Source: Kangiellaceae bacterium
GTDB lineage: Bacteria > Pseudomonadota > Gammaproteobacteria > Enterobacterales > Kangiellaceae
Reading direction: 5' to 3'
Length of the DNA: 64,000 nt
Assembly: GCA_013373015.1 (NCBI GenBank)
Contig: JABXIQ010000001.1
Location: 2,198-66,197, forward strand
Part shown: positions 34,248-57,883 of the stretch, piece by piece
Position numbering within the stretch: position 1 is the first letter of the stretch
Layout: each line of letters begins with the position of its first letter
Program-made: the position numbers and the translations under genes
The notes under the pieces: generated by a model
What the model was told of the DNA's origin: nothing
The model's database searches: none
What the model saw: only the letters and a program-made list of their open reading frames with translations

Positions 34248-34356
34248 AATTAGTCCTAAGTTCCACAGTTGGGGCTATTATATACAGAAACGTTGTTAAT
34301 GTCTTAATAGCTTTACTAATAAGTTTTATTAGTTTTACTTATCTTTTAAATAAACT

Positions 34357-37282: not shown

Positions 37283-37283
37283 T

Positions 37284-38725: not shown

Positions 38726-39603
38726 ATTTGATTTACAATCCTTTTCAAATATTGACCATAACCTGTCTTAATTAATTCATTTGCTCGTGCTTCAAGTTGT
38801 ACACTTGAAATCCATCCATTATTAAAAGCAATTTCTTCTAAGCAGGCAATCTTTAATCCTTGTCTATGCTCAACTGTTTGAACAAAGTGTCCTGCTTCTA
38901 ATAAAGAATCATGTGTTCCTGTATCTAACCAAGCAAAACCTCGGCCAAGCAAATTGACGTTAAGCTCACCCAGTTTTAAATAGGCTTTATTCACATCAGT
39001 AATTTCGAGCTCCCCTCGTGCGGAAGGTTTTATTTTTTTAGCAATATCAACTACTTTGTTATCATAAAAATACAGGCCTGTTACGGCATAGTTTGATTTC
39101 GGTTCAGCTGGTTTTTCTTCTAAACTTAGAACTGTACCTTCTTCATTAAACTCAACTACTCCAAAACGCTCAGGGTCGTTCACTCGATATCCAAAAACGG
39201 TCGCTCCTATCCTTAATGATGCCGCTTCTCTAAGTTTGTTGGAAAAATGTTCTCCGTAAAAAACATTATCACCAAGGACTAAAGCAACCGAGCTTTCGCC
39301 AATAAATTCCTCCCCCAATATAAATGCTTGGGCCAATCCATCAGGACTCGGCTGAATCTTATAAGTTAAATTTAATCCAAAATTTTTACCATCCCCCAGC
39401 AACCTTTGATAACCAGAAATGTCATCTGGGGTAGATATGATTAATATTTCTTTTATACCCGAGAGCATTAATACAGACAATGGGTAATATATCATTGGTT
39501 TGTCATAAACTGGCAATAACTGCTTGGATAACCCTTGTGTTAGGGGGTGTAGTCTTGTTCCAGAGCCACCGGCCAATATAATCCCTTTAACAGAACTATT
39601 CAT
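38722..39603 (-). CDS. rfbA: glucose-1-phosphate thymidylyltransferase
   Basis: 293 aa with [16 protein letters not shown] and [12 protein letters not shown]. Confidence 0.95.
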
Positions 39604-40661
39604 TCATCACCTACTCTTTCTAAATTAGAATCACCAGATAAAACTCTTTTCCACCACGTGGTGTTTTCCAAATACCACTTAATAGTTTTTTCTAAGCCCG
39701 TTTCAAAACTTTCTTCAGGAACCCAACCAAGTTCATTTTTTATTTTATTTGCATTAATAGCATATCGAACATCATGTCCAGGTCGATCTTTTACAAACTT
39801 AATTAACTGCTTAAAGTCAGTTACATTAGTTGGTTTTTCAGAAACTTTTTCGTTTAAGAAATCACATATAGCATTTACAACATTAAGATTTGTTTTTTCG
39901 TTATGACCACCAATATTATAGGTCTCACCGGACTTACCTTTTGTAGCAACCAAATACAGTGCTCTTGCATGATCATCAACATAAAGCCAATCACGAATTT
40001 GACTGCCATCACCGTAAATTGGTAAATCCTCTCCTTTCAATGCATTTAAAATCATATGAGGAATCAGTTTTTCGGGAAATTGATAAGGACCGTAATTATT
40101 CGAACAATTAGTTACTATAACGGGTATTCCATAAGTTCTGTTCCAAGCCCTAACCAGATGATCAGAGCTAGCCTTACTTGCAGAGTAAGGAGAGCTTGGG
40201 GCATAAGGGGTCGTTTCAACAAACAAATCATTAGTCCCATGCAAATCTCCATAAACTTCATCAGTAGAAATATGATGAAATAGAAATCCACTTTTCTTTT
40301 TAGATTCTAACCTACACCAATAATTTTTTGCCACATCAAGCAAATTGAACGTACCTACAATATTGGTTTGTATAAAATCAGCAGGGCCGTCGATTGAACG
40401 ATCCACATGACTTTCAGCCGCCAAATGCATAATAATATCTGGCTGAAATTCTTCAAACAGGACTTCTAAAGCAGCCCTGTTACATATATCAATTTTCATT
40501 AATTGATATTGTTCAGAACTAGATATTTCTTCCAAAGAGTCTAAATTAGCTGCATATGTTAATTTATCTACATTGCAAACACGGTGATTGGTATTTGTAA
40601 TAATATATCTAATAACAGCACTACCAATAAATCCGGCACCACCAGTGATTAAAAAATTCAT
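39600..40661 (-). CDS. rfbB: dTDP-glucose 4,6-dehydratase
   Basis: 353 aa with TGGAGFIGS, the ISTDEVYG region and [12 protein letters not shown]. Confidence 0.95.
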
Positions 40662-40675
40662 TAAAATTTCCTATA

Positions 40676-41737
40676 TTAAAAAAGGTTATAATATTGACTT
40701 TTCACAACAGACCACATATAGCGCCTCTCTGCAATTTCTTTCAAGTCATAACCATCAAAATTTTCTATATTTGACTTTAAAATTCCATTTAATGATTCTG
40801 AACAGGCAAAGTACATCCCTTTGTCTTCCATGGTTGCTTTATTATAATTACAGTCAAAAGCAATAATTAACTTATTAAAAAACATCATTTCAACCAAAGA
40901 TGGATTTGTCCCACCGGCTGAATGACCATGAATGTATGCTTTACATTCCGACCTCAATTCAAAAAGTTTATTAAGGTCATATATTGGATCAAGTAGCAGA
41001 ATATTTTCGCTCTCAGAATATTTTAACTTGAGTGCTCTGCCATAACTACTGTTATCCCAGTTCCCAACAAATACAATTTTTTCAGAAGAGTTTTCAAATG
41101 CTTTTAAAATCAAATGCACATTATTCTCAGGTTCTATCCTACATAATGCAAAAAAATAATTATTTTTTTTATTTGGGAGAGGTTTAATAACGCAATGATC
41201 ACCTCCATATGCAATGACAGTGCTATCCAGTGAATACTCTTTATGAACATAATCTGCAATTGCTTGATTGTCTGACACCACAGAAGTTGAGTATTTCACA
41301 GCGATCTTCTCAGAAAATTTTAAAAATTTTCTCGCTATACCACCCCATTTATCACGACGCCACTCTAAACCATCTATATTCGTTATAATTTTCACTTTGG
41401 GAAATAATAGCTTTACTATAGGTAGACATAGTGCGCCAGAAACTCCAAGTACTAAAAGAGTCCTGTAACCTTTGAAAACCGCATGAAAGATAGATAATAA
41501 ATCATAGAGAACACTCTGTGCACCATTAGCAGATAAAGGTATATAATGAAGTGCAGCTCCTTTGTAGTTCCTTATTTTTTTTTTATAGGTTTTTGAAGAG
41601 CAATAAACAACCATGTCTATTGGAGAGTCAGTAATTAAGTTCTCAACTAGAGTTTCAAAACCACCATAACAAGCTGGCACACCAACTGTTCCAATTATCG
41701 CAACTTTTTTATTTTCTTTTTTCATAATATATTGCAC
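40676..41737 (-). CDS. DUF1972-type GT4 glycosyltransferase, GacB/WchF-like rhamnosyltransferase
   Basis: The N-terminus VAIIGTVGVPACYGGFETLVENL, together with NIDGLEWRRDKWGGIARKFLKFSEK, mirrors the GSRGLPAKYGGFETFVEKL ... DGHEWLRAKWS pattern of streptococcal GacB/WchF as I remember it. An alternative ATG lies at 41725. Confidence 0.7.
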   Translation of the reverse strand: MQYIMKKENKKVAIIGTVGVPACYGGFETLVENLITDSPIDMVVYCSSKTYKKKIRNYKGAALHYIPLSANGAQSVLYDLLSIFHAVFKGYRTLLVLGVSGALCLPIVKLLFPKVKIITNIDGLEWRRDKWGGIARKFLKFSEKIAVKYSTSVVSDNQAIADYVHKEYSLDSTVIAYGGDHCVIKPLPNKKNNYFFALCRIEPENNVHLILKAFENSSEKIVFVGNWDNSSYGRALKLKYSESENILLLDPIYDLNKLFELRSECKAYIHGHSAGGTNPSLVEMMFFNKLIIAFDCNYNKATMEDKGMYFACSESLNGILKSNIENFDGYDLKEIAERRYMWSVVKSQYYNLF

Positions 41738-42725
41738 TTGACTCTTTCATTATTTTCTCAACAGTATCCCAGTCCCCATTTTGTATATAAAACCAAGATG
41801 ATGAGATCATACCCAAAGCACCATTTTTAAGTGCATAGTCTGTAAAATTATTCGTAGTATCTTCAGATTCCCATGTAGTACCTATCACGTTAAAACCTTC
41901 AGATTTTAACGTTTTAACTGTAGGGAAATCTATTTGCTCATCCCAATAATGCCAATCACAAACCACCAAATCTCTTGGAAGTTGATCTCTTAGAGGTTTA
42001 CCATAACCAAAAAGGTTTCCATGCAAATGCTTCTTTAACATTTTAGGAAACTCTTTCTGAGAAATAAGCATATCACCCCAAATCCATGTTTTAATGTTTT
42101 TTGACTTTAAATAATCATGCAGCCTTATTACATCTTGAACAAATAAATCAGCAGGAATTATTTTTTGGTCGTCGCCTAACCATTTGTTTTTTGAGTATTT
42201 GCTGTGCCCAGCAGCTTCATCATGTCCTATATGTAAAGCTTTAGGCTCTAAAAGTTCAATAAGCTCATTTATTAGAGGAAATACTATTTCCGAATAAACT
42301 TCGGAATTAGGATTGTATGTTACATCATTATAAAGAAATTGCGGGTGATAATCTTGTAAAAACTTTTCTTGATGAGTGAGTAGTTTTAATTCGGGGATAA
42401 TTTCCAAACCTAGACTCTTTGTATAACTTATCCACTCTTTAAATTCTGACCGGTTTACATATTTTTTACTAAGCTTCCAAGGTGCATTGTTAAGCTCAAC
42501 TCCATCGGTAACTAACGTAACTATATGTGTATAACCATTTTGTTTAGCCATAGAAGATATCTTCATTGCATCCTCTAAAACTATATTCCTAAACACAAAA
42601 TGAAATCCTAATAAGTTGTTATTGCTGTTTTCAACAGTTATATTAGCATCATCCATACATTGAGCCCTCATTATAAATAAAGAAAGTAACGATACAGCAA
42701 AAATTTTTAAAATCTTATCTAACAT
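41709..42725 (-). CDS. secreted GH20-like (dispersin B-like) glycoside hydrolase
   Basis: Trimmed to ATG 42725, 1 nt after the upstream stop; the track start is TTG. It has a signal peptide. The TIM-barrel landmarks are LGLEIIPELKLLTH, the catalytic D-E pair in LHIGHDEAAG, and KTWIWGDMLI. These parallel the dispersin B segments KGIELIPELDSPNH / HIGGDEF / KTRMWNDGLI. Confidence 0.55.
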   Translation of the reverse strand: MLDKILKIFAVSLLSLFIMRAQCMDDANITVENSNNNLLGFHFVFRNIVLEDAMKISSMAKQNGYTHIVTLVTDGVELNNAPWKLSKKYVNRSEFKEWISYTKSLGLEIIPELKLLTHQEKFLQDYHPQFLYNDVTYNPNSEVYSEIVFPLINELIELLEPKALHIGHDEAAGHSKYSKNKWLGDDQKIIPADLFVQDVIRLHDYLKSKNIKTWIWGDMLISQKEFPKMLKKHLHGNLFGYGKPLRDQLPRDLVVCDWHYWDEQIDFPTVKTLKSEGFNVIGTTWESEDTTNNFTDYALKNGALGMISSSWFYIQNGDWDTVEKIMKESSAIYYEKRK

Positions 42726-42726
42726 A

Positions 42727-43719
42727 TTAATACCCAAGTCTTTCCATAGTTTGGTAAAAGGGGATTTTTAGGCCATCATGCAACTCAGGATCAGGTTTGG
42801 CTTTTGGCTTTTTTAGTGTACCTTTTGCATACTCAATACATTTATTGTCATGTGGTAATTCCAAGAAATCTAGAAGTTCAATGAACTCTGTCTCAACATT
42901 ATTGCATAGTTTCTCATAATTTAACCTATGAAAACTATTATCATCAGTATCAATATATTTCATGCCTTCTCTCATAGTAACTATCCATTCTACAGCAGCT
43001 CTATCAACATGATTTTTCCAAGACAACATTTCATCCTGTAAATCTATTAAATCACTATGCTCAGGTATAAGTTGTTCTACTAAATACTTCCACTTACGAT
43101 CATTTACGCCCCACCAGTCATGTGTTTCAGCTTCGTTTTGGATACCGAGTCTTTCGCTCCAATAATCAATCGATAAGCAGGTATCACTACCACTTCTAGT
43201 AAGAAATAAAAATTTAGCATCAGGGAATACTCGCTTTAAAAAACTCACTCTGAAAATCATTTCTGGATATTTGTCGACCGTTCTTTTATTAAAAGTAACT
43301 TTTTCGTAGAAAGAATAAGTTTTATGAGCTTTTTGAATAAGCTTATCAGTTACATTTTCAGCATTTAAGCGATAAGTCGCATCTATATCTGTATAATTTC
43401 CGATAATATCTTCATTCGGTACAATTGAATTCCAAAGTGCTTTCGGTTCATTAAGATATCCAACATCTTTGTGCATAGATAAAATTATACCCAAAATAGT
43501 TGTTCCACTTCTTCCCGTACCCAAAATAAAAACAGGCTTTCTAACTTTGTTAGCGCCAGGCATTATTGTAGACAACTTCAAAAACTTGAACACAAAAAAA
43601 TTAAACCACCGTCCTTTTGTTGTTAACGGTCGACCTTCAAACAAGGCATAGCTCATTAGTCTAGAATATAGTCTTGATGGTCTAGTCTTAATATATTTTT
43701 TGTCGATTTGAGCTAACAT
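42727..43719 (-). CDS. sulfotransferase (RSGTT-loop class)
   Basis: It has the 5'-PSB loop FILGTGRSGTTILG and a 3'-PB-like segment FLFLTRSGSDTCLS. An N-terminal extension of about 60 aa includes a hydrophobic stretch. Confidence 0.8.
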   Translation of the reverse strand: MLAQIDKKYIKTRPSRLYSRLMSYALFEGRPLTTKGRWFNFFVFKFLKLSTIMPGANKVRKPVFILGTGRSGTTILGIILSMHKDVGYLNEPKALWNSIVPNEDIIGNYTDIDATYRLNAENVTDKLIQKAHKTYSFYEKVTFNKRTVDKYPEMIFRVSFLKRVFPDAKFLFLTRSGSDTCLSIDYWSERLGIQNEAETHDWWGVNDRKWKYLVEQLIPEHSDLIDLQDEMLSWKNHVDRAAVEWIVTMREGMKYIDTDDNSFHRLNYEKLCNNVETEFIELLDFLELPHDNKCIEYAKGTLKKPKAKPDPELHDGLKIPFYQTMERLGY

Positions 43720-43722
43720 TAC

Positions 43723-44754
43723 TTATAAAAACCTTTTTTTTATCGAGCTAAAAATATTTTTAGTTCGTCCTAAATTCAACATAACAGAAATACAACCTTT
43801 AAATATAATAACCGGTATATTATAAAGACTTACAAAAAGACTTTGGGCTACCGCGGAAGACTCATAACCAAGTTCACGCATTTCTTTATTACAAACCTTA
43901 TGACAAAGATTAAGCTCATAATGAGTCAACCCTCCATTTTTCCAACTATTGGCAATATTTGAATCTATTCCTTTCTGATTACTGGCATCTTCTTTTGTAG
44001 AAGATCCTACCTTTGGTATTTCCAGCATGTCATCGCTATATATAACTCCTAAAAAATCACAAATATTCTTTATGGCTGGCTCAGGGCTATTTACCAAATC
44101 TTCAAATTTTATTGAAAAAAATCGAGGATGCTTTTCATACTTTTTTGCTTCTAATACATTTGCCCGCCAAAGTTTCGTAATAAATATTGGATGATAATTA
44201 GCCCAAGACCTAAATGCTTCTAATCGAGGGATGGTTTTTGCTCCTAAACGTCTTCTTTTCCATTTATGCTTTTGTGACAACATAACAGCTCTAGGATCTC
44301 TAATCATATTAATGATTTTTGCATTTGGAAGTTTTTCTAATATCTGTCCAGCCGAAAATAAATATCTAGGCGTTTGCTCAAGTGGTATGTGCTTACCTGA
44401 ACCACTCATCTCGCTTAGAAGAACTTTCAAGTATAGTTCCATTGGATTTAATTGACCCAACTCTGAAATCAGCTTCTTACTGATGACATCATAATTTTTT
44501 TTAGGTGCGAAATATCCGTTTCGAATATTATTTATTAGCCTATTAGTCATTGGCAGCAAACTATCAGGACTCCATTCTTTATCTGAGTCTATGTCTTCAA
44601 ATGCAACCAGTTGTTCAAAGAAGTGAAGCTCAGGAAAGGTGGAAATATTTTTCTGCCGCCCTAATATTCGCCCAAGCATAGTTGTGCCACTTCGGCTATT
44701 GCCAACCACAAAAAAAATAATGTTATTTTTTAATAAGTTCATTGTATAAATCAT
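43723..44754 (-). CDS. sulfotransferase (RSGTT-loop class)
   Basis: It has FFVVGNSRSGTTMLGRIL (5'-PSB) and IINMIRDPRAVMLSQ (3'-PB), a pattern like TPST/RaxST/Stf0. An alternative ATG lies at 44742. Confidence 0.85.
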   Translation of the reverse strand: MIYTMNLLKNNIIFFVVGNSRSGTTMLGRILGRQKNISTFPELHFFEQLVAFEDIDSDKEWSPDSLLPMTNRLINNIRNGYFAPKKNYDVISKKLISELGQLNPMELYLKVLLSEMSGSGKHIPLEQTPRYLFSAGQILEKLPNAKIINMIRDPRAVMLSQKHKWKRRRLGAKTIPRLEAFRSWANYHPIFITKLWRANVLEAKKYEKHPRFFSIKFEDLVNSPEPAIKNICDFLGVIYSDDMLEIPKVGSSTKEDASNQKGIDSNIANSWKNGGLTHYELNLCHKVCNKEMRELGYESSAVAQSLFVSLYNIPVIIFKGCISVMLNLGRTKNIFSSIKKRFL

Positions 44755-45931
44755 TTATTTGTAAACAGTGTTGCTCTTTAGTATAGGAACTTATAAAAAG
44801 TTCATGTGCATTCCTGCTCATTTTTTTTACAGTCTCAGTATTGTTAATTGCTTTAAGAAATGAAAACAATTCAGTCTCACTGTACTTATTATAGAGAAAC
44901 CCATTAAAATTATGTTTAACCAACTCCGGAAATGCTCCTGTTCTAGAAGCAATGACTGGTTTACCATGTGCCATAGCCTCAAGACAAGTAAGCCCGAAAG
45001 TTTCGTTCAATAGTGACGGGTTGATAACAACCAAAGAATTCGCGAATATATTTTCTAAATCTTTTCCCGTTTTATATCCATCCCAAATAATATCTTTTTC
45101 AAGACCTAGTTTATTTGCATATTCTTCTATTTTATCTTTATCTTCTCCTTCACCGACAATCCTTAATGGTAACCTAGGTGATTTAAGCTTTGAATATGCT
45201 TTAATAAGTACTTTAACACCCTTTTCTTCGGTAATTCTTCCTACATACAGATAGTAATCACCATTGGTATTATTTTCTATACCGCAAGAATTAGTGAAAT
45301 TTGCAATAGTAGTTATTTTTTTCTTATCCAAGCCTAGTTTTATTAACTTTTCAGTTTGGTAGTTACTTACAGCTATATAATGATTTATAGAGTCATTTGC
45401 ACCAAAAAAGCGAGTCACATATGATTCTGCAGCAGTTAAAATAGAGCGGGCCAAACTACCACGGTTACATTTGTTTATAATTGCTTTCCAATATTTGTTT
45501 CCATGACATTGTTCACAATACTTGCCATTAGCATACAAAGAAGATATCGGACAAACTAGTTTATATTCATGTAAAGTTTGAACTATCGGTGCGCTATAAT
45601 TTTTTAATACCGTTAGTATACTTCCAGTAAGTTGGCCATAATAAATATGTAAATGTATTATATCTGGTTTAAAATCATTTAAAACTTTGACAAGTGTATT
45701 TTTTGCTCTTTTAGAGTACAAGAATGAAAATATATCCTTTAAAGCAGGATTTGATGTATTAATAGTTGGTACCGTTGAATGTATAAGGCTCTTATGAGTA
45801 TTTTGAAGTGACTCAGTGGAAAATGTTTTCACATCATGTCCATGCTCAATAAGTAATGCTGACAAATCTAAAAAGTAGCGATCAGAACCTCCTCTTGGAA
45901 AATGATAATTATTTATCTGCAAAATCTTCAA
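44723..45931 (-). CDS. GT4-family glycosyltransferase
   Basis: 402 aa with the EX7E region ETFGLTCLEAMAHGKPVIASRTGAFPELV. The TTG start overlaps the upstream TGA (TTGA). Confidence 0.85.
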   Translation of the reverse strand: MKILQINNYHFPRGGSDRYFLDLSALLIEHGHDVKTFSTESLQNTHKSLIHSTVPTINTSNPALKDIFSFLYSKRAKNTLVKVLNDFKPDIIHLHIYYGQLTGSILTVLKNYSAPIVQTLHEYKLVCPISSLYANGKYCEQCHGNKYWKAIINKCNRGSLARSILTAAESYVTRFFGANDSINHYIAVSNYQTEKLIKLGLDKKKITTIANFTNSCGIENNTNGDYYLYVGRITEEKGVKVLIKAYSKLKSPRLPLRIVGEGEDKDKIEEYANKLGLEKDIIWDGYKTGKDLENIFANSLVVINPSLLNETFGLTCLEAMAHGKPVIASRTGAFPELVKHNFNGFLYNKYSETELFSFLKAINNTETVKKMSRNAHELFISSYTKEQHCLQINDLYNELIKK

Positions 45932-46686
45932 CGAAACAACTCTCTAATAAGTGAACCAGTAGATAATGAATTAATAGCTTTTTGATTTTCATTAAAATCT
46001 TCAGCAAAAATAAAAGCTTCTATTGCATATTTTTTTGAATAACCCAGAATCAGTGCTTCATTTCTATTATATTTTATCGTATTGATGAGATTGATTGAAT
46101 CTTGAGTTTTATAATGTCTTAAGGCATTTTTTTTATCTAAAAATGTTCCTTTACAGTAAAAGCTTGCATCCATAATATTAAAAGTTATTGAAGTACTTCT
46201 ATAGTATACAACTTTACTTTTTTTGATGTTTTTTGAAGTGCTGTCAGATATATAACTATGATCATTTGTAGTATCATTAGGAGCAAGTGTAAAAACATAA
46301 TCATATAATCCATCTATTGATTTTAGATTACTTCTTAATTTTTCTTTATTTTCTTCTAACCTACCTTCTTCCAGCTCCCAGAAATATAATTTTTTAAAAG
46401 GCAATCCCGTCAGGGCTCTCTTTGACTCGATTACTCTTTTTGCATTTATTTCAGGGTTTGCTGTTCTTGTAACCAAAATGAGCTCAATCTCTAATCTAAG
46501 ACCATTTTCTTTTATAAAGTTATAACAACCTAACACCTCATCATCTGAATGAGGAATTAGTATAACCACTTTTGTACCAGCCAGTATTTTTTTTAAAGGG
46601 ATAATTGGCTTAACAAAGCTCCTACTTTTAATTTGTAGAAACCACAATAATAAATTATCCAATAGTGTTTTTAATATCTTTTTCAT
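45928..46686 (-). CDS. PIG-L/LmbE-family N-acetylglucosaminyl de-N-acetylase
   Basis: 252 aa with the family metal/catalytic motif VVILIPHSDDEVLGC (the PHxDDE pattern). Confidence 0.75.
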   Translation of the reverse strand: MKKILKTLLDNLLLWFLQIKSRSFVKPIIPLKKILAGTKVVILIPHSDDEVLGCYNFIKENGLRLEIELILVTRTANPEINAKRVIESKRALTGLPFKKLYFWELEEGRLEENKEKLRSNLKSIDGLYDYVFTLAPNDTTNDHSYISDSTSKNIKKSKVVYYRSTSITFNIMDASFYCKGTFLDKKNALRHYKTQDSINLINTIKYNRNEALILGYSKKYAIEAFIFAEDFNENQKAINSLSTGSLIRELFR

Positions 46687-48049
46687 TTATCGAATATGAT
46701 TTTATAGAACTGGCAATAGAAACACCTGCCAGGGTCCAGAAAATAAAAGAAAAAGCTCGCAATTCAAGGGCTCTCTCCATGAACAGCGCAAGAGGCAGTA
46801 AAAAACATGCTATTCTAAAGGACTGAACTAACACGTTATTATTTGATGTTTGCTTCAAAAAGAATATTGAGCGTCTGTAAATAAGTATTAAAAACAGTGT
46901 CAGTACCAATAGACCTAAAGGCCCGTAATAGATCAAAGAAGCTATAACAAATACATCTTCAAACGCATTCCATCCTACTAGCTTACCAAATGCACCACCT
47001 TTTGCAGCTAAAATAGATTGAGCATTATTTACATCAGCGCCATAGCCAAGTGGCTTAAAAGAAGTAATTGCCTCTTTCCCTACCTCCATAATAAACCAAC
47101 CTCTAGACCCACTAGAAGTGTTTTGCCAATATTCAATACTTAGCAATTGCATCAGCGACTGTATAGGACTCAAAGACACTTCTTTTGCTTTAACATATTC
47201 AATTGATGATAAATTAGACACCATCATTAAAGCAATAACACCGGAGAGCATGATAGCACCTAACAACATCACTCTAAATCTATGCCCCACAAACCACCAC
47301 CATATAATGGGTATAGATAAAGTCAAAAGGAGTGGACCACGTTTATAAGTGTAAAAAATCCCTATAAGACAAAGAAAATACATTAGATACATAGATATTG
47401 ACTTATTCTTGTAACAGCTACCATATACAAAAAAGATAATAGCGCATATAAACAAAAAGAATGCTAAGGCTGCTGGTCGTCCAAAAGAACCATAACCAAC
47501 ACCAATCTTTGTTTCAAGGTTATTCACTAAACTCTGTATTTCTGTCAGCTCTGCTTTTATCACTGGAGGGGCAAAAAAACGGTCTCTAAACTCCTCGCCT
47601 AAAACATGTTGGAGTAAAGTAAAGCCAACTTGCGTTATAACGATAAGGCTTAATACTTTTATCAATATATCTAATTGTCTAGAAGTGGGCGTCCATTGCA
47701 GTAGAACAATAATGTAATAAAAAGCAATATACCTCATCATTGCTCTTAGGTTAATTAAAGCTTTAAACAAATCTCCATTGTTAATCAAGGTAGAAATAAA
47801 TACCAGCATTAAAAAGAACAGTATACAGAAATCCGCTTTAGTCACCCTAAAATTTGAAATACTCTTATCCAAACATTTTGCAACAACTACCAAGAAAAGA
47901 ATTCCGTAAACCAATAACTCACTAAAGGTCTTTGCCAAGATATAACTTAGCTCACCATTCAAAAGCCTGCCGTATAACATCTCTTCAAAACTGAAGAGCA
48001 ATATAAGACAAATAAGCACAATAAAAATGAAGGGTTGTATTCTAATCAT
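46655..48049 (-). CDS. wzy: O-antigen/capsule repeat-unit polymerase (Wzy-like)
   Basis: 464 aa with at least 10 hydrophobic helices and one larger loop. It is very AT-rich and has an ATGA overlap with the upstream gene. The call rests on topology and context. Confidence 0.65.
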   Translation of the reverse strand: MIRIQPFIFIVLICLILLFSFEEMLYGRLLNGELSYILAKTFSELLVYGILFLVVVAKCLDKSISNFRVTKADFCILFFLMLVFISTLINNGDLFKALINLRAMMRYIAFYYIIVLLQWTPTSRQLDILIKVLSLIVITQVGFTLLQHVLGEEFRDRFFAPPVIKAELTEIQSLVNNLETKIGVGYGSFGRPAALAFFLFICAIIFFVYGSCYKNKSISMYLMYFLCLIGIFYTYKRGPLLLTLSIPIIWWWFVGHRFRVMLLGAIMLSGVIALMMVSNLSSIEYVKAKEVSLSPIQSLMQLLSIEYWQNTSSGSRGWFIMEVGKEAITSFKPLGYGADVNNAQSILAAKGGAFGKLVGWNAFEDVFVIASLIYYGPLGLLVLTLFLILIYRRSIFFLKQTSNNNVLVQSFRIACFLLPLALFMERALELRAFSFIFWTLAGVSIASSIKSYSINEKDIKNTIG

Positions 48050-48933
48050 ATATACTGATTAATACTCTTCCATTTAGATAAGTCGATTTTAAAATTTGAT
48101 TCTAGCAATTCTATATCAGAGCGGAAATACTCTGTCAGTTCTTTTTTTGTAGCTTCAGAAAGGCAAGGTCTGTCAAGATTATCTTTTTTATTATAAACGA
48201 AAAATATTTTTTTTATTCTATCTCTTGATTTTCTATTGAAAAAAGGCTTAAGCATCGGGCCTATGATTTTATTTAATTTAAAAAATAAATGGTTTGATTT
48301 TGCGCCACCAACAGTTCTATTAAACTGTTCATTGGTGTCTATCGGTTCTTTTTTTAAATCGAAAAAAGTTAGTATTTCTTCTAATGTATCATTTGGATTT
48401 TCTTTAAACTCTTCAAATAAAACTATTTTAATTTGATTTTTATTAAAATAGTTTAGTAACTTTTCAAGTTGCTTAAAGTATAGCCCCCTATCAAGATATG
48501 CATTATATCTTTTGTGTATCATCTTGCCTGAACTCAATCTCTCTGGTTCTTTCTTAACTGCCAAATCAAAGCTTTGCTCAATTTCCCTTCCTTTTTGTAG
48601 AGCATATTGATGAGCAGAAAAAGCTCTAGATACCGGCTCCCTTAATAAAACAACTAATCTCATATTAGGATTATGTTCATAAAGCCTTTTGTGCGCTTCT
48701 TCAAAATATACACATCCCACATTTTTAGCTAGAATAAAATCAGCATTTTGATTAGATGTATAGAAGCTGTTATAACACTTATCAAATCCTTGCTTATACA
48801 CATCCTCATTAACGAAATATGGAAGCTCCATAACATCATGAGATGCGACACTAGAATGAGATGACAAGTATCTAAATAACGATGTTGTAGCCGCTTTTTC
48901 GACACCAATGATCATTCCATCAATTGAAATCAT
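48046..48933 (-). CDS. sulfotransferase (Sulfotransfer_1, heparan-sulfate-sulfotransferase-like class)
   Basis: It has MIIGVEKAATTSLFRYLSSH (5'-PSB, GVxKxxT type) and LVVLLREPVSRAFSAHQY (3'-PB). By hand it is collinear with animal 3-OST/NST motifs. Confidence 0.85.
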   Translation of the reverse strand: MISIDGMIIGVEKAATTSLFRYLSSHSSVASHDVMELPYFVNEDVYKQGFDKCYNSFYTSNQNADFILAKNVGCVYFEEAHKRLYEHNPNMRLVVLLREPVSRAFSAHQYALQKGREIEQSFDLAVKKEPERLSSGKMIHKRYNAYLDRGLYFKQLEKLLNYFNKNQIKIVLFEEFKENPNDTLEEILTFFDLKKEPIDTNEQFNRTVGGAKSNHLFFKLNKIIGPMLKPFFNRKSRDRIKKIFFVYNKKDNLDRPCLSEATKKELTEYFRSDIELLESNFKIDLSKWKSINQYI

Positions 48934-49798
48934 AGTAATCCTGACCTATATATTGATAAATTTTAGCAACAGTAGACTCATTTACAATGACAGCTTTGGC
49001 ACTTCGATTAGTGTATATAACCTTTTTAACAAAGTTATTCACAAAGCTTAATAACACTCCAATTATTGGAATACCTTTAAAGGTTATTGCTGCTGCTCTT
49101 CGAAACTTATCATATGTTTTTGCTAAAGCCGGCAGCCTTGACTCAACACTTTTGTTACTGATTTTAAAGTCATAATTTTCGTACATAGACGAAGAAATAT
49201 TTGTGAATTTACATATGTCTGCCATTAATTTTTGAGGGTTATTTCTCAACAAATCAAAATCCACAATAAAAACTCTATCAGAAAAAGCATTTTTTATTTT
49301 ATTAATAAATTGTTTGTTTTTTGCCTGTTCTAATGCGCGCAGATGAATAGGACTATTATCTTTAAAGCCTTTCTTAATACAAAGTTCTATATAATCTTCA
49401 AAGCTAGTGTTTTTTTCTAACAATCCTTTCTGAAGCGAAAATTTATACCAGGAAACAATTCTATCTAAAACACCCCTGATAATTATTATAATTTTTGAAT
49501 TAGGCAACAGTTCTGCAACAGATAAAAATGTCTCACAATACATATAATCAGGGCTAGCCTCCAATCTAATCCTATCATGCTCTGCATCTGAGAACATTTC
49601 TTCATATTCATCTAAGTTTGAACCGTCAAATGTATTTTCCTTCATTGCCGGATAAGATTTATCTAAAAAAAATCTTAACTCTTTCGATTTTGCCGTTGCT
49701 ATATCTTTGTGACATTTTAAGTAGTTATACATTGATGTAGTACCGGATTTTGATTCACCAGCTATGATCAAATACCGTTTATCACTTTGTATATTCAA
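48920..49798 (-). CDS. sulfotransferase (Sulfotransfer_1-like class)
   Basis: It has YLIIAGESKSGTTSMYNYL (5'-PSB) and KIIIIIRGVLDRIVSWYKF (3'-PB). The TTG start follows directly after the wzx TAA. Confidence 0.8.
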   Translation of the reverse strand: MNIQSDKRYLIIAGESKSGTTSMYNYLKCHKDIATAKSKELRFFLDKSYPAMKENTFDGSNLDEYEEMFSDAEHDRIRLEASPDYMYCETFLSVAELLPNSKIIIIIRGVLDRIVSWYKFSLQKGLLEKNTSFEDYIELCIKKGFKDNSPIHLRALEQAKNKQFINKIKNAFSDRVFIVDFDLLRNNPQKLMADICKFTNISSSMYENYDFKISNKSVESRLPALAKTYDKFRRAAAITFKGIPIIGVLLSFVNNFVKKVIYTNRSAKAVIVNESTVAKIYQYIGQDYYDFN

Positions 49799-51076
49799 TT
49801 AACTTTGTAGCCTTTTTAAAAATGGAAGAGTATTGATATGTAATTTTTTACTTACTAAATAAGTTAGTATAGTGTTGGAAAGTATAGCAACTATAGAAAC
49901 ACTTATTGCTGCTCCTATCAGCCCATAATTCGGTATCAAGATAATACAAGCTACACATAGTAGAAGACCACTGAACATTGTTACTTTTTTTGAGACTATC
50001 TCATTGCCCGATGTAATGAGCAGATAGTTCACAGAACCAGTAAGCGCATTTGCAAACTGACCTAGTGCTAATATTATTAGAGCACCCCCTCCTCTTGAAA
50101 AGTCATTTCCAAAAACACTCATTATCAAATCACCAAAAAAAATTATTACAAGCAATACAGGACTTGAGATACCTATAATTATTACTGACATTTTTCTTGC
50201 AATAGATTCAATTTCTTTCAAGTTGTCTTTCGCAAAAAGCGCTGAAAACCTAGGGGCAATCGCATTATTTACCGCAGACAAGGTAAAGCTCACCAACATT
50301 GCAACACGTATAGCTGTCCCAAATATTCCTACATCATCACTTGTAACCCAAAAACCCATTATCAATATTGGGGCATGTTGCAGTATCCCTCTATTTATTA
50401 TGGCAACTACGAGCAAATGCTTACTTCTTTCCCAAAGTTTTCTAAAAGGATAATACGGTACTTTATTCCAGCCACCTATTCTAATGACCCAATTAATGTA
50501 ACAAATTATCAAGACACAATAAGATGCAATGATATAGCTTAAATAAACGCCCTTGCTCTCAAAGTTTTGACTTAAAGGGTATATTAATATTAATCCTAAT
50601 AATGGCAGTAAAGCACCTTGAATCACCATACCAAGAGCATAATTACCACACCCCTTTAAAAATTCAGAATATAAATTAAATATTGTTAAAGGTAAGATTC
50701 CCAAAATCATTATATAGAATGCAGACTCAAAAAAAGCACTCTGAAAAACCTTATTACCAAATAGCGCTAATAATAGATAGATTATAACAATAATGGCCAA
50801 AGAAACTACTGTAGGCACCACAATCCCAGTTTTTGCAACAGCCTTAACTTTCATTTCTTGCTTATTTGCTTTATATTGCGCTGCATTCTTTAATAGAATA
50901 TTATCTAGTCCTAACTTTGAAAAGATACTAATTATAGTAATTGCAGACAATGCAAAGTAATAATGCCCTGAACTTTCCGCACCTAATATTCTCGCTACAA
51001 CTATATTGAATAGGAACATCAAGCCAGCACCAATCACCTTTAGTGTCATGGCAGAAAATGCTGTTTTAATTAGCAT
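49799..51076 (-). CDS. wzx: polysaccharide flippase (Wzx, MOP superfamily)
   Basis: 425 aa with about 12 TM helices. Its position and topology are typical for Wzx. Confidence 0.75.
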   Translation of the reverse strand: MLIKTAFSAMTLKVIGAGLMFLFNIVVARILGAESSGHYYFALSAITIISIFSKLGLDNILLKNAAQYKANKQEMKVKAVAKTGIVVPTVVSLAIIVIIYLLLALFGNKVFQSAFFESAFYIMILGILPLTIFNLYSEFLKGCGNYALGMVIQGALLPLLGLILIYPLSQNFESKGVYLSYIIASYCVLIICYINWVIRIGGWNKVPYYPFRKLWERSKHLLVVAIINRGILQHAPILIMGFWVTSDDVGIFGTAIRVAMLVSFTLSAVNNAIAPRFSALFAKDNLKEIESIARKMSVIIIGISSPVLLVIIFFGDLIMSVFGNDFSRGGGALIILALGQFANALTGSVNYLLITSGNEIVSKKVTMFSGLLLCVACIILIPNYGLIGAAISVSIVAILSNTILTYLVSKKLHINTLPFLKRLQS

Positions 51077-51110
51077 TGAAATGGAAACCTATGTTTTATT
51101 ACTTATGCTT

Positions 51111-52142
51111 TTATTTAAGCTTCAACAATATTGCTTTTATTGAATCCCTTTTTGCTAGCAATAAATTATAGACAATTATTACGAATAGAAATGCAAGCAA
51201 TGAAACGGGTTCCGAAACATTCGTTTTATGTACATAAAAACCAATAAAAGCAAAAAGCAATGCAATGGCCGCTATAAATAATAAAGCATGCTTAGAATTA
51301 AAACCCAAATCCATAAATACATGATGTAAGTGTTCTCGATCTGCGACAAGAGGTGATTGACCTTTTTTTATACGTTTAAACATTACTGTCACCATATCTA
51401 TTAAGGGAACTGCAATAAACCACAAGACATGAGCAGGTTTAAGAACGGCCTCTTCCATTTGGCTGGATACAATTAACAACCATGCTGTCACCATTCCCAG
51501 CATCATACTACCAGCATCACCCATAAAAATTTTATTTTTCTTAGTTAAGAGTCCTAGATTAAACAATAAAAAAACTATAAGCGAAGCGGATAATACACCT
51601 ACTAACATTTGAATATTCGCATCAGGGACAATGAAACTTATAAAAATCAGACTTATAAGAGCTAAAACTCCCGCAAGTCCATCTATTCCATCCGTCATAT
51701 TAAACGCATTAATTCCTGCTAAAATTGCCATAATTGTAACAACACCTGCAGCGGGACCGGTAATCATATTACCAAACCCAAAAACATTTCCTAAATTGTC
51801 GATTTTATAATCTGTTCCAAAAGTTAATATAGCGGCAATTAAAACTTGAGCTACCAAACGCAACTTGGCATTTAAATCATAACGGTCATCAAGCATTCCA
51901 ATAAAAACTAACAAAGATATTGATATAATAATTAAATTTATGTGCTGACTGTCATTTATATACATGCTTATAGAAGTTAATGTCGCTAAATAAATTGCAA
52001 GCCCCCCTATTAGCGGTATATTACCAACATGCTGTTTCCTATTATCAGGCGTATCAACTAATCCCCAATTAACAGCAATTGGTCTTAACAAAAATACAGC
52101 TATAAAACAAACAATCGTAGAAACAATTAAACTATTATGCAC
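51111..52142 (-). CDS. wecA: undecaprenyl-phosphate HexNAc-1-phosphate transferase (WecA/MraY family)
   Basis: GTG start. The motifs are LDDRYDL, NMTDGIDGLAG and FMGDAGSMMLG. 343 aa, polytopic. Confidence 0.85.
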   Translation of the reverse strand: MHNSLIVSTIVCFIAVFLLRPIAVNWGLVDTPDNRKQHVGNIPLIGGLAIYLATLTSISMYINDSQHINLIIISISLLVFIGMLDDRYDLNAKLRLVAQVLIAAILTFGTDYKIDNLGNVFGFGNMITGPAAGVVTIMAILAGINAFNMTDGIDGLAGVLALISLIFISFIVPDANIQMLVGVLSASLIVFLLFNLGLLTKKNKIFMGDAGSMMLGMVTAWLLIVSSQMEEAVLKPAHVLWFIAVPLIDMVTVMFKRIKKGQSPLVADREHLHHVFMDLGFNSKHALLFIAAIALLFAFIGFYVHKTNVSEPVSLLAFLFVIIVYNLLLAKRDSIKAILLKLK

Positions 52143-52156
52143 TTTACAATCCTAAT

Positions 52157-53107
52157 TTATCTGTACTTCCTAACAACTGCCTGTAGCAAAACTATCATTA
52201 ATGATATTAAGCCACCTAAAAGGGTTCCAATTATACAAATAAGAGCTCTAGATGGCTTATCTTTCTCTTCAGGTATTTTAACTTCACTAATTTTTTTAAA
52301 AACAAACTCATCTGATACCTGTGCTAACATTTTTGTCTTATGTTGCTCTTGAACCAACTCACCAAAAACAGTCTTAATTTCTGCAATTGACGTCTGCCCT
52401 ATCTGCGACTCTAAATATTGAATTCTCTTGTTGGCTTCGTCCAATGCTTGATTTTTCATAATCTGATTAATTTCTTGAATCAAAAGATCCGTCCATTGTT
52501 TTGCAATATAAGGTGAGTAATGAGTTATCGAAATATTAACCAGTCCTGTTTCATTGTTTTGATCAACTATTAATCGACTTCTGTACTCTTCAAAAAGTTC
52601 CCAACTTGTAGGTTCAACAGTTTTCCCTTTTGGAGCATCACGAACCCAACTTTTAGTATTTTGATTATATTTTTCATCATCAATGATTAATTGATTCTTT
52701 GACTGGTCCCATCCTCTTGCTGCTAATAAAGGGACAGCCAGATCATACTTTGCGATAAAATTTTCGGCAAAGCCCCAGCTTTTCAATAATTCCATAGCCA
52801 CTATTGAATTCGATGCCCCGCTAGAATTAAAGCCAACCCCAGCCAATGAAGCTAAACCACCTAACTGAGAAGACAGTGCTCCAAAAGAGTCTTTGCCTTC
52901 ACTTTCAATAGGCTTTACAACTGCAGTAGCCTTATATTCATTAGGAAGATATATAGCCAGCCCTACCGACGATATTGCAAATAAGAAAGTGATAACTATT
53001 ATTATCCATTTTCCTTTCCATAGAATGGAAAAAATTTCTCCAACATCAATACCATACTGCTGGTAATGATTGTTTGCATCCGTGATTTCTTGATTTATTT
53101 GTGTCAT
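52157..53107 (-). CDS. wzz: chain-length determinant protein (Wzz/PCP-1 type, no kinase domain)
   Basis: 316 aa. A TM helix near the N-terminus (WIIIVITFLFAISSVGLAIYL) is followed by PNEYKA. The periplasmic region is coiled-coil, and a C-terminal TM helix is followed by RKYR. No Walker A motif or Tyr-rich tail. Confidence 0.8.
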   Translation of the reverse strand: MTQINQEITDANNHYQQYGIDVGEIFSILWKGKWIIIVITFLFAISSVGLAIYLPNEYKATAVVKPIESEGKDSFGALSSQLGGLASLAGVGFNSSGASNSIVAMELLKSWGFAENFIAKYDLAVPLLAARGWDQSKNQLIIDDEKYNQNTKSWVRDAPKGKTVEPTSWELFEEYRSRLIVDQNNETGLVNISITHYSPYIAKQWTDLLIQEINQIMKNQALDEANKRIQYLESQIGQTSIAEIKTVFGELVQEQHKTKMLAQVSDEFVFKKISEVKIPEEKDKPSRALICIIGTLLGGLISLMIVLLQAVVRKYR

Positions 53108-53125
53108 TAAAATTTCCGATTCTTT

Positions 53126-54583
53126 CTAAAGCTTAATTTTCCAAGACAATGATATATTGTATTTTTCTTTCTGATAACCAAAGGTATCTATAGTTTTATC
53201 TTTTACTTCTATTTGAGCCCCAATCAAACCGTACTTAGTTGTATTTAGATAGTGAAACTCTATCTGGTTAAACTTAATATTTGTTGTTGAAATACTATGC
53301 TCTTCACCGACACCATCACTATTCATGTTTACATTAGTAAGTTTTAATTTATATTTATCCCCATTCTTATGTGTCGCGATAAGTCCTAAGCCCACACTCT
53401 GTGAATCGTTATCAAATGTCGAGCCTAAGCTTCTTAGTTCTGTACGGTAACCTGTACGATAAATAGCATTGTTATATGTTAAATTTGTTCTATATTCATT
53501 TTCAGTATCGGCATACTCAATATATGAAGAAATATCCAAATCCCCCAACTGAAAGTCTGTAGAGTAACCGAATTGATAAATTTTCCTTGAAGGTAGATAA
53601 CCCGCCTCATCTTCACCTATTAATTGACCGTACAAGGAACCATAATATTTTTTTGTCGGAATTCTCCATTTAAAATCTATACCAGCCAACTGATTACCTG
53701 GCTCATTACTTCTGTCAGCTCCACAACCACCTTCAAGCTCATCACAATTATCTCTGCCAATAAGCAAATTAAAAAAGTTAGACAAGTTTTGAGGTCGTCC
53801 TTCCCCACCCCACTGAGCAGTTCTTCTTAAACCAATTTCCAAAGAATTAAATGGCTTGAAATTAACACTCATTCCTAATAACTTCGCATGTGGAACATGG
53901 CGGTCACTTTCTAATTGACCAATAAAAGCATTAAAGGTCCATGGACCTATCCATGATAACCAAGGAGACTCAAATGCGTCTGAATAATTACGCTGAATAG
54001 ATAATGCAGGAACAGGGCGAGCATTATTAGATAATATTAATGAAGTATCCCATCCAGAGCCATACCAACGCTCTTGAGCCCCAGCTGACAGAATCCAATT
54101 ACCCCATACAGCTGCAATATATGAATGATCCAACCTGTTTTCTTCTCCATCAATAGGATCAAAGGCTCTTGTTGCTTCAATATTCCATGCGAAATTTTTG
54201 CTTACGCCAGTATTTTTTGTTGTGATTTCAGCCTTTTCACGTCTATCGTCACCATAGTGACGAAGGATTTTTCCTTGATTACCAGCTTTTAGAATTAAGA
54301 AACTGTTGCTCTCGTGCTTAGTTTCAAAACGTGCTCGCCTTTTGACACGCATATAAATAGGCATTACCTTATTAGATAATAACTGGTTATCTACCTCTTC
54401 AAGATCACGTACTATCGGAGCCCACATCAAAGGCCAAGTAGTAATTGGCACCTTGATTACACCATGATTTGCTAACGCTTCAATATCCGCACGTAGCCAT
54501 GGATCGCGTGTATCAATCCAAGGCTCTGCTAAAACAGTAAAACTAGTTAACAGCAAGGCTAAAGACACGAAAACTTTTTGCAT
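53126..54583 (-). CDS. wzi: capsule assembly outer-membrane protein Wzi
   Basis: 485 aa with a signal peptide. Long collinear matches to remembered Wzi segments include TWPLMW, SPWLSWIGPW, VPHAKLLG, WGGEGRPQNLSNF, NEPGNQLAGIDFKW and GQLIGEDEAGYLPS. Confidence 0.85.
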   Translation of the reverse strand: MQKVFVSLALLLTSFTVLAEPWIDTRDPWLRADIEALANHGVIKVPITTWPLMWAPIVRDLEEVDNQLLSNKVMPIYMRVKRRARFETKHESNSFLILKAGNQGKILRHYGDDRREKAEITTKNTGVSKNFAWNIEATRAFDPIDGEENRLDHSYIAAVWGNWILSAGAQERWYGSGWDTSLILSNNARPVPALSIQRNYSDAFESPWLSWIGPWTFNAFIGQLESDRHVPHAKLLGMSVNFKPFNSLEIGLRRTAQWGGEGRPQNLSNFFNLLIGRDNCDELEGGCGADRSNEPGNQLAGIDFKWRIPTKKYYGSLYGQLIGEDEAGYLPSRKIYQFGYSTDFQLGDLDISSYIEYADTENEYRTNLTYNNAIYRTGYRTELRSLGSTFDNDSQSVGLGLIATHKNGDKYKLKLTNVNMNSDGVGEEHSISTTNIKFNQIEFHYLNTTKYGLIGAQIEVKDKTIDTFGYQKEKYNISLSWKIKL

Positions 54584-57066: not shown

Positions 57067-57070
57067 TCGA

Positions 57071-57871: not shown

Positions 57872-57883
57872 TACGCTACCGCC
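57872..57883 (-). promoter_or_regulatory. ops (operon polarity suppressor) element, the RfaH recruitment site
   Basis: The minus strand reads GGCGGTAGCGTA. This is 11 of 12 identical to the E. coli ops GGCGGTAGCGTG, and the G12 position is A. It lies 18 nt upstream of the cysQ ATG, with an AGGA Shine-Dalgarno sequence in between. Confidence 0.7.

Follow-up and report, generated by a model that had tools for sequence, protein, structure and literature searches.

We analysed a stretch of 64,000 nucleotides (hereafter the window) from contig JABXIQ010000001.1 of a Kangiellaceae metagenome-assembled genome (MAG). On its minus strand we found four open reading frames (ORFs) for sulfotransferases, which fall into two classes: A1 (42727–43719) and A2 (43723–44754) form one pair, and B1 (48046–48933) and B2 (48920–49798), whose ORFs overlap by 14 nt, form the other. 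The genes belong to a sulfated-polysaccharide cluster with an exceptional ratio of sulfotransferases to glycosyltransferases, which is an example of a widespread, uncharacterised cassette. On balance, we consider it probable that the locus is an RfaH/ops-controlled operon for a Wzx/Wzy-type capsule or extracellular polysaccharide (EPS), whose small, probably trisaccharide repeat unit is heavily sulfated.

All four ORFs passed the Pfam gathering thresholds (Sulfotransfer_1, PF00685, and/or Sulfotransfer_3, PF13469; cut-offs 22–27 bits). The scores were 79.2, 88.3, 49.1 and 56.5 bits for A1, A2, B1 and B2, respectively (E-values across the four from 7e-22 to 4e-9), which is far beyond chance. 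The genes lie where the initial annotation of this DNA had placed them, and every peptide quoted in it was found in the translations: VFILGTGRSGTTILG and FLFLTRSGSDTCLS in A1; VGNSRSGTTMLG and MIRDPRAVMLS in A2; IIGVEKAATTSLFRYL, LLREPVSRAFSAHQY and ILAKNVGCVYF in B1; IAGESKSGTTSMYNYL, IIRGVLDRIVSWYKF and RLEASPDYMY in B2. In each 5'-phosphosulfate-binding (PSB) loop, a Lys or Arg is followed by (S/A)(G/A)TT (GR70SGTT in A1, SR21SGTT in A2, EK13AATT in B1 and SK17SGTT in B2), and this P-loop residue is kept in the family alignments. The 3'-phosphate-binding (3'-PB) segments carry an Arg and a Ser eight residues apart, in RSGSDTCLS of A1 (R175 and S183), RDPRAVMLS of A2 (R151 and S159), REPVSRAFS of B1 (R98 and S106) and RGVLDRIVS of B2 (R108 and S116). 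A Glu at PSB +21 to +23 is present in all four translations and in their alignments (E91, E42, E36 and E40 in A1, A2, B1 and B2). The residues that bind 3'-phosphoadenosine 5'-phosphosulfate (PAPS), which the initial annotation had proposed to inspect, are intact in all four proteins. With every PAPS-binding and base residue in place, all four are predicted to be active.

Identity is 22% between A1 and A2, 24% between B1 and B2, and 20–24% across all four; judged from these sequences, neither pair is a recent duplication. No N-terminal signal-like hydrophobic segment was found in A1, A2, B1 or B2. Hydrophobic segments elsewhere in A2 (C-terminal, residues 306–326) and in B2 (residues 235–253) fit an association with the membrane. 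The proposal that the four enzymes are of two distinct classes was borne out by sequence and, for the modelled A1 and B1, by fold: pair B resembles the heparan sulfate (HS) 3-O-sulfotransferases (3-OST) and N-sulfotransferases (NST), and pair A is of the Sulfotransfer_3 type, remotely like TPST, CurM and Stf1.

We searched the solved structures with phmmer and obtained 3RNL as the best match of both B proteins (E = 1.3e-23 for B1 and 2e-9 for B2). This is a structural-genomics sulfotransferase of Alicyclobacillus acidocaldarius, to which neither the molecule name nor the entry title assigns a function. HS 3-OST-5 and NST1 were matched by B1 at 8.6e-14 and 1.5e-8 and by B2 at 5.6e-4 and 1.2e-7; 3-OST-3 and 3-OST-1 were also matched. 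We then compared the AlphaFold model of B1 (pLDDT 89, pTM 0.86) with known structures using Foldseek. Template-modelling (TM) scores were 0.69/0.81 to 3RNL and 0.64–0.77 to 3-OST-3, 3-OST-5, 3-OST-1 and 1NST, giving a range of 0.64–0.81, compared to ∼0.4 for TPST and the cytosolic SULTs. The likening of pair B to the animal HS 3-O/N-sulfotransferases is therefore supported by phmmer for both proteins and by the fold for B1.

B1 and B2 share with the animal enzymes (PDB 1T8T, 3BD9, 3UAN, 1NST and 8CCY) the fold, the Lys P-loop (K-x-x-T-T), the Glu of an E-x-x-F-F motif 22–23 residues on, and the Arg and Ser of the 3'-PB segment. The identity, however, is only 18–22%, and the equivalents of His186 and Asp189 of 3-OST-3 are absent from both B1 (P38 and V41) and B2 (R42 and L45). 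The animal HS enzymes act on the finished polymer in the Golgi, whereas B1 and B2 appear to be soluble or membrane-associated cytoplasmic proteins of a Wzx/Wzy operon, the acceptor of which is presumably an oligosaccharide linked to undecaprenyl diphosphate (Und-PP). No heparosan synthase was found in the locus.

The initial annotation had also pointed to a Glu of the 'EK' motif as the catalytic base, retained in B2 but exchanged for Ala in B1. The difference is real, but the column is not that of the base. The catalytic base of the 3-OST enzymes is Glu90 in 3-OST-1 and Glu184 in 3-OST-3, and Lys162, His186, Asp189 and Lys215 are the other essential residues (PMC8341778). In 3-OST-3 the PSB Lys is followed by the Glu at +22, from there by the His at +2 and from there by the Asp at +3, which gives the motif E-x-H-F-F-D. 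From this published spacing, the base is the Glu of that motif and not that of the later 'EK', in which the Lys is Lys215. When B1 is aligned with 3-OST-5 by HMMER, E36 of B1 (MELPYF) falls on the catalytic Glu and A69-K70 on 'EK'; the equivalent of the base in B2 is E40 (KELRFF). The chain numbering of NST1 is self-consistent, with the P-loop Lys at 614 and the Glu641/Glu642 pair within FEEIQFF, which is the same motif. A literature search on Glu642 of the N-sulfotransferase returned no report. The Glu at the catalytic position is invariant in 17 B-type sequences, and both E36 and E40 are intact. A dead B1, or a base relocated to His32, was considered and rejected, as the premise fell on the motif spacing and on the alignment of B1 with 3-OST-5.

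To describe the Ala column, we built a profile from B1 and its three nearest relatives and counted residues in the top 145 of the 4317 cluster representatives that it retrieved at E ≤ 1e-30. Position 69 is Ala in 114 and Gly in 15 of them, and never Glu. His32 (window ∼48838–48840, minus strand) is a signature of the B1 subfamily (128/145), whereas the B2-type proteins have Ala or Ser at this place. The B2-type proteins and 3RNL carry E-A-[ST]-P, with no Lys at the Lys215 position; the E-A-S variant of 3RNL is that of B2 (E-A-S-P) and differs from B1. Ala69 thus reads as a signature of the large B1 subfamily that precedes the Lys215-equivalent Lys (K70), and at this position B1, as far as the alignments tell, is more animal-like than B2. 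Lys215 of 3-OST-3 potentially contacts an acidic group on the neighbouring sugar (PMC8341778). By analogy, B1 may bind an acceptor that already carries sulfate.

It could be argued, in line with the loss of Glu proposed in the initial annotation, that B1 is a non-catalytic partner of B2, which would leave only three active enzymes. In the loci read, B1-type genes adjoin a B-type sulfotransferase that has Glu at the 'EK' column, as the overlapping B1 and B2 genes do here, and Ala in B1 takes the place of the Glu seen in B2 and in most bacterial relatives. We consider this very improbable: the column is not that of the base, E36 is kept in 139 of the 145 representatives, K13 is nearly invariant, K70, R98 and S106 are found in 145/145, and B1-type domains also occur fused to Wzx with no B2 partner in the same protein. 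The corrected assignment gives targets for mutagenesis, E36 and E40 as the base and Lys70 as a subfamily signature.

Pair A had been called TPST/RaxST/Stf0-like. A weak likeness to TPST was borne out, CurM/OLS and, by fold, Stf1 were matched as well, and a specific link to Stf0 found no support. A1 matched TPST weakly and only over the N-terminal half (E ∼3e-6); the matches of A2 were the sulfotransferase domains of OLS (E = 8e-9) and CurM (E = 6e-7). The structural model of A1 (pLDDT 87.7) has a sulfotransferase fold, with best TM scores of only 0.45–0.56 (CurM sulfotransferase, TPST1/2 and Stf1). Stf0 was absent from the matches of pair A to solved structures. An Arg P-loop (R-S-G-T-T), followed after 21 residues by a Glu, is common to A1, A2, TPST1/2, the CurM/OLS sulfotransferases and Stf1. 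A1 E91, at R70 +21, aligns with the second Glu in GEET of TPST, and N90, E91, P92 and K93 are invariant in the A1-family alignment. A2 E42, at R21 +21, stands in a PELH motif common to A2 and the CurM/OLS sulfotransferases. We take TPST2 Glu99 and CurM Glu60 to be the catalytic bases of these enzymes. The kinship is nevertheless very remote (TM 0.45–0.56; E from 1e-6 to 1e-9), and the gene context of pair A implies a carbohydrate acceptor.

Both A proteins belong to large families. The A1 family, very large and unusually well conserved, comprises 2014 clusters at E ≤ 1e-10, with 50–60% full-length identity and a mean column identity of 64%. The identity includes residues 1–60 (window 43540–43719, minus strand), a conserved extension beyond the regions matched to solved structures, with the consensus MIAQIDxxYIKTRPxKLxSRLISYALFEGRPLTTRGRWINP. 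This extension possibly serves in acceptor or membrane binding. The A2 family comprises 1545 clusters, including those of anammox Kuenenia and Brocadiaceae. Distant homology links A2, and more weakly A1, to NoeE, the Nod-factor sulfotransferase of Sinorhizobium fredii NGR234, which is also of the Sulfotransfer_3 type (E-values of 5.9e-10 and 3.3e-4 against NCBIfam NoeE, both far under the equivalog cut-off; 21% tblastn identity over 84% of A2). NoeE sulfates a deoxyhexose (fucose), and both its acceptor and its context differ from those of pair A.

The four genes are part of an unbroken minus-strand run of tightly packed or overlapping genes, which begins with an RfaH gene and ends at a strong terminator (29237–29208) behind PMM. 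In order of transcription we find rfaH, an ops-like element, cysQ, a Wza-like gene, wzi, wzz, a wecA-like gene, wzx, B2, B1, a probable wzy, and genes for PIG-L, GT4, A2, A1, a GH20-like protein and a DUF1972 glycosyltransferase, followed by rmlBADC, PGI, a Ugd-like gene, the fused Sat/CysC gene, a hairpin, a DASS transporter and PMM/PGM. In the literature, sulfated-polysaccharide clusters are recognised by the joint presence of PAPS genes and sulfotransferases among the polysaccharide genes (PMC11641403; PMC11766843). This set is present here: besides the four sulfotransferases, we found a fused ATP sulfurylase/APS kinase, that is, a PAPS synthase (32538–34247; Pfam ATP-sulfurylase 4e-90, APS_kinase 3e-60), followed by a terminator-like hairpin (32533–32513), and a CysQ-like 3'(2'),5'-bisphosphate nucleotidase (57071–57853; Pfam Inositol_P 1e-50). 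The CysQ family presumably clears 3'-phosphoadenosine 5'-phosphate (PAP), the by-product of sulfotransferases. A DASS/CitMHS anion transporter with TrkA_C, encoded together with PMM/PGM at 29366–32508, is a candidate sulfate importer. By its gene families, the operon appears to hold a complete sulfation module of its own, with anion import, PAPS synthesis, four transfer steps and PAP removal.

Against these four sulfotransferases stand only three sugar-transfer steps. The earlier statement that WecA and two further glycosyltransferases are the only ones holds within the locus, which encodes a WecA-like initiating N-acetylhexosamine (HexNAc)-1-phosphate transferase (51111–52142, minus strand, as all the operon genes; Pfam Glycos_transf_4 1.8e-30), a GT4 glycosyltransferase (44723–45931; Glycos_transf_1 8.5e-38), which would add the third sugar, and a DUF1972/Cps2T-like glycosyltransferase (40676–41737; DUF1972 5e-28; NCBIfam Cps2T 1.3e-53, below the equivalog cut-off), probably a rhamnosyltransferase for the second sugar. 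The ratio of sulfotransferases to glycosyltransferases, 4:3, is unusually high, compared to 2:8 for synechan.

Synechan, the product of the xss cluster of Synechocystis PCC 6803, is a guide to how such counts can be read. Both loci are Wzx/Wzy-dependent EPS loci with sulfotransferases embedded among glycosyltransferases. In xss, 8 glycosyltransferase and 2 sulfotransferase genes match an 8:2 ratio of sugar to sulfate (PMC8205485), or 0.25 sulfate per sugar, whereas the present locus has 3 and 4; xss has no PAPS genes, whereas the present locus encodes a PAPS synthase. Since gene counts track composition in synechan, three transfer steps and four sulfotransferases would by analogy allow up to ∼1.3 sulfates per sugar, as an upper bound. 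The four sulfates per repeat and heparin-like charge density suggested in the initial annotation would follow from the same arithmetic of gene counts. Because the xss cluster lies on the megaplasmid pSYSM, we searched the PLSDB plasmid collection for kinship with the synechan sulfotransferases. No Synechocystis entry was among the matches listed for A2 or B2, a weak negative that covers neither A1 and B1 nor 12 weaker B2 records, the presence of pSYSM in the collection being unconfirmed.

Two marine gammaproteobacteria with rhamnose-containing sulfated capsular polysaccharides, Vibrio sp. KMM 8419 and Cobetia marina KMM 1449 (PMC11641403; PMC11766843), provide a second comparison. Their clusters, like this locus, contain PAPS-synthesis genes, cysQ, a sulfate permease or transporter and sulfotransferases. 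Those capsules, however, depend on an ABC transporter (kps) and hold about one sulfate for each disaccharide; their sulfotransferases, one to three in number, are spread over 70–80 genes, and the sulfurylase is of the CysDN type. Here, a compact Wzx/Wzy operon combines four sulfotransferases with a fused Sat/CysC.

From the gene content, the protein families, the intact cofactor and base residues and the synteny, we infer the sugars, the order of steps and the number of sulfates per repeat as follows. The WecA-like enzyme would load HexNAc-phosphate onto undecaprenyl phosphate. The DUF1972/Cps2T-like enzyme would then add L-rhamnose, which PGI, PGM and rmlBADC of the operon could supply, and the GT4 enzyme would add a third sugar; PIG-L may de-N-acetylate a HexNAc. 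A1 and A2, with the Arg P-loop, and B1 and B2, with the Lys P-loop, would act as cytoplasmic, PAPS-dependent enzymes and sulfate the lipid-linked unit at the inner membrane face. For these steps the DASS transporter would supply sulfate, the fused Sat/CysC would make PAPS, and CysQ would remove the inhibitory PAP. Wzx would flip the sulfated unit and Wzy polymerise it; Wzz, the Wza-like protein and Wzi would export and anchor the polymer, and trimming or release of the polymer is probably the task of a periplasmic GH20-like enzyme. PAPS is a metabolite of the cytoplasm. This, the lack of signal-like segments, the hydrophobic segments of A2 and B2, and fusions of Wzx with sulfotransferases support sulfation of the Und-PP-linked unit just before flipping. 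In these fusions a full flippase is followed by a B1-type sulfotransferase (P0353, 738 aa; P0378, 768 aa), so that flippase and B1-type enzyme are physically joined. Co-adaptation of flippase and polymerase to a sulfated unit would fit the conserved block wzx-B2-B1-wzy. B1-type domains were also found fused to SAM methyltransferases (P0367 and P0374).

We next asked where else these genes occur together. In both nearest B1 homologues, wzx is followed by a second B-type sulfotransferase and then by the B1-type gene. The anammox MAG Ca. Loosdrechtia aerotolerans has wzx-B2-B1, a 454-aa multi-pass membrane protein, a further B2-like sulfotransferase and GH20, with 31–39% identity to the window proteins. 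A genome scan with the B1 profile, followed by tblastn of all window proteins, showed the full set of four sulfotransferase types, clustered, in another three lineages, represented by MAGs of Phycisphaeraceae, Cyclobacteriaceae and Poribacteria (loci L004, L006, L007 and L008). The Phycisphaeraceae order is B2-B1-Wzy-?-A1-GT4-A2, where the question mark stands for an unassigned gene; the Cyclobacteriaceae MAG has Wzx-B1-B2, two further genes and then DUF1972 glycosyltransferase-A1-A2 on the opposite strand; and two Poribacteria MAGs have B2-B1-Wzy-GH-like-A2-A1. In the Poribacteria locus L007, the gene between Wzy and A2 is GH79-like. Two secreted sulfatases (Sulfatase, SGSH_C and dockerin; 15962–20182) stand directly downstream of the four-sulfotransferase cassette of L007, so that genes for synthesis and desulfation lie side by side. 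Our literature search found no published work on Poribacteria sulfotransferases and sulfated polysaccharide.

An A1-anchored metagenome scan gave 80 loci, and counts were made in the 28 A1-containing loci with enough flanking DNA. A DUF1972 glycosyltransferase is present in 24 of these 28, GT4 in 16, A2 in 12, a B1-like sulfotransferase in 15 and a B2-like one in 13. Two loci (L040 and L041) repeat the order of the window, (PAPS synthase-CysQ-Wzx)-B2-B1-Wzy-GT4-A2-A1-GH20-DUF1972 glycosyltransferase. Among cultured bacteria, Desulfolithobacter dissulfuricans GF1 has Wzx-B2-type sulfotransferase-Wzy-GT4-epimerase-A1-GH20-DUF1972 glycosyltransferase-WecA-like, and Nitrosomonas marina has A1 near a DUF1972 glycosyltransferase. 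A sister locus on metagenome XUSH22-1 scaffolds (L024/L025) shares the A2-A1-GH20-RhaT-rml-PGI-Ugd-PMM half with the window at 44–81% identity, and also has Wzz and WecA. It carries a different block of Wzx, sulfotransferase, glycosyltransferase and Wzy genes, in which two other sulfotransferases replace the B pair to give four again, and between Ugd and PMM it lacks both the PAPS synthase and the transporter. The two loci form a serotype-like mosaic. The cassette or parts of it were found in Kangiellaceae, Poribacteria, Phycisphaerae, Cyclobacteriaceae, an anammox Planctomycete, Desulfobulbia-type bacteria and Nitrosomonas. Because its gene sets recur in other phyla and metagenomes, the locus reads as one member of a modular, cross-phyla cassette family, with a core of A1 and the DUF1972 glycosyltransferase, usually with GT4. 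The clustering of all four types in distant phyla strengthens the idea that the four act together.

Several points weigh against a heavily sulfated trisaccharide. The source organism is a MAG, the polymer is known here from genes alone, and the gene number sets only an upper bound on the sulfates per repeat. More glycosyltransferases could be encoded elsewhere in the genome. The rhamnosyltransferase call comes from a sub-threshold NCBIfam match and adjacency to the rml genes, and the departures of pair B from 3-OST-3 (B2 at Lys215, both proteins at His186 and Asp189) concern residues essential in that enzyme. In many related loci, only one, two or three of these types are present, which makes the set modular rather than obligatory. 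A sulfotransferase gene in such a cluster need not be essential to the product either, since deletion of xssE, one of the two synechan sulfotransferase genes, barely affected EPS accumulation or bloom formation (PMC8205485).

These last observations agree with a different account, in which some of the sulfotransferases are redundant, condition-dependent or directed at another acceptor (the lipopolysaccharide core or another glycan), and the polymer is heterogeneous with one to three sulfates per repeat. Sulfotransferases number one, two, three and four in 7, 9, 4 and 8 of the 28 A1 loci, and L024/L025 keeps A2-A1 while exchanging the B pair. On the other side, the four enzymes are as divergent as described above, yet all types stay clustered across phyla, which argues against redundancy, and here all four lie within one tightly packed operon, between wzx and the glycosyltransferases. 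We regard such partial sulfation as possible, though rather less than likely.

A second account concerns the chemistry of the linkage. The GT4 enzyme might add an alpha-HexNAc, PIG-L (45928–46686; Pfam PIG-L 1.3e-8, with a PHSDDE motif) deacetylate it and a B enzyme N-sulfate the amine, as a split bacterial analogue of the animal N-deacetylase/N-sulfotransferase (NDST). The nearness of B1 and B2 to the HS 3-OST/NST clade is in its favour, as is the position of the PIG-L gene, which stands directly upstream of GT4 in the window and in L068, L085 and L088 and was seen only in loci with B-type sulfotransferases. In addition, the sulfate of bacterial glycosaminoglycan (GAG)-like polymers is reported, from dye and nitrous-acid assays, to be mostly N-linked (PMC7356697; PMC10483923). 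However, PIG-L, always adjacent to GT4, is present in only 4 of ∼12 loci with the B2-B1 pair and is absent from most of them (L040, L041, L054, L065, L072, L004 and L007). N- and O-sulfotransferases are not separable by sequence, the donor sugar of GT4 is not set by its profile match, and a PDB sequence search returned no relative of the PIG-L protein that could refine its function. We hold heparan-like N-sulfation to be unlikely. The wider proposal, that Wzx-B2-B1-Wzy-(PIG-L)-GT4-A2-A1-GH20-DUF1972 glycosyltransferase is a mobile cross-phyla pathway for one conserved polysulfated GAG-like polymer with N-sulfoglucosamine (from PIG-L and an NST-like enzyme), and is the source of the mostly N-sulfated 'sulfated GAG-like' material of anammox and granular sludge and of marine isolates, is likewise a speculation to which we give little credence.

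Bacterial sulfated polysaccharides are rare and poorly understood, and a 2024 review counts six producing genera (PMC11625862). Sulfated GAG-like polymers are reported from granular sludge, anammox granules and Pontiella, with the producers and sulfotransferases stated to be unknown (PMC10483923; PMC7356697). We regard the cassette as a good candidate for the origin of the heavily sulfated 'heparin-like' polymers of bacteria. Its presence in the anammox MAG Ca. Loosdrechtia aerotolerans, and in the cultured Desulfolithobacter dissulfuricans GF1 and Nitrosomonas marina, makes the question of producers and enzymes directly testable. Soluble bacterial relatives of the HS 3-OST/NST enzymes are also of interest to heparin biomanufacturing, where the expression of active animal NDST in bacteria is described as a bottleneck (PMC13353177).

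The remaining genes of the operon are consistent with a Wzx/Wzy system, as the initiating transferase, Wzx, the probable Wzy, the polysaccharide co-polymerase (Wzz) and the outer-membrane polysaccharide export protein (Wza-like) are encoded together. The Wza-like protein (54583–57084) has Poly_export and four SLBB domains. Wzi (53126–54583) was assigned by Pfam Caps_assemb_Wzi (2.4e-80), Wzz (52157–53107) by a profile scan, and the Wzx flippase (49799–51076) by Pfam Polysacc_synt/MatE. The probable Wzy polymerase (46655–48049) is a multi-pass membrane protein of 464 aa that fell 1.3 bits under the Pfam Wzy_C cut-off (E = 4e-7; 30.4 against 31.7 bits) and is syntenic with Wzy-like genes of related loci. 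The genes for dTDP-L-rhamnose synthesis, rmlB, rmlA, rmlC and rmlD (37284–40661), are 54–81% identical to those of L024. PGI and the Ugd-like protein (34357–37306) were found by profile scans, and the PMM/PGM call follows from 62% identity to an L024 gene with the PGM_PMM I–IV families.

Directly upstream of the operon lies the gene of an RfaH-like antiterminator of the NusG family (58039–58551; Pfam NusG 4.8e-24). The leader between rfaH and cysQ contains an ops-like element, GGCGGTAGCGTA (57872–57883, minus strand), with a match to GGCGGTAG at 57876–57883. RfaH antitermination probably controls the whole operon of ∼25 kb. A second GGCGGTAG, at 8598–8605, lies inside an ORF and is probably there by chance. 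A promoter scan of the window was uninformative (76 sites against 74.6 expected). The flanks look housekeeping. On one side they comprise nth and a run of rnf-like genes, as judged by the order and size of the genes and by the translation of 28554–29189; uvrB stands on the other. The G+C content is 0.30–0.35 across the core (∼34000–54000), compared to 0.39–0.43 in the flanks, which is consistent with horizontal acquisition.

Two further proteins of the operon deserve mention. In the Ugd-like protein (34357–35706), GDSLES replaces the NAD-binding GxGxxG and GFGGIAL replaces the catalytic-Cys motif GFGG(S/Y)C, and both changes are kept in a 48%-identical relative (L024 11732–13114). It looks like a conserved non-canonical or inactive homologue of UDP-glucose dehydrogenase. 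The secreted GH20-like protein (41709–42737), found by a profile scan, has an N-terminal hydrophobic segment and lies between A1 and the DUF1972 glycosyltransferase. By analogy with hydrolases of other EPS operons, it may act on a beta-HexNAc-containing polymer, trimming or releasing it. It keeps H-x-G-H-D-E with the HIGHDE catalytic pair. Among solved structures, a small GH20 catalytic-domain protein (9FYL/9FYM; E = 9e-19) comes closest to it. The A1-GH20-DUF1972 glycosyltransferase triad recurs in several phyla, with 39–54% identity (L002 13285–14649; L021 11008–12027; L024 4717–5727).

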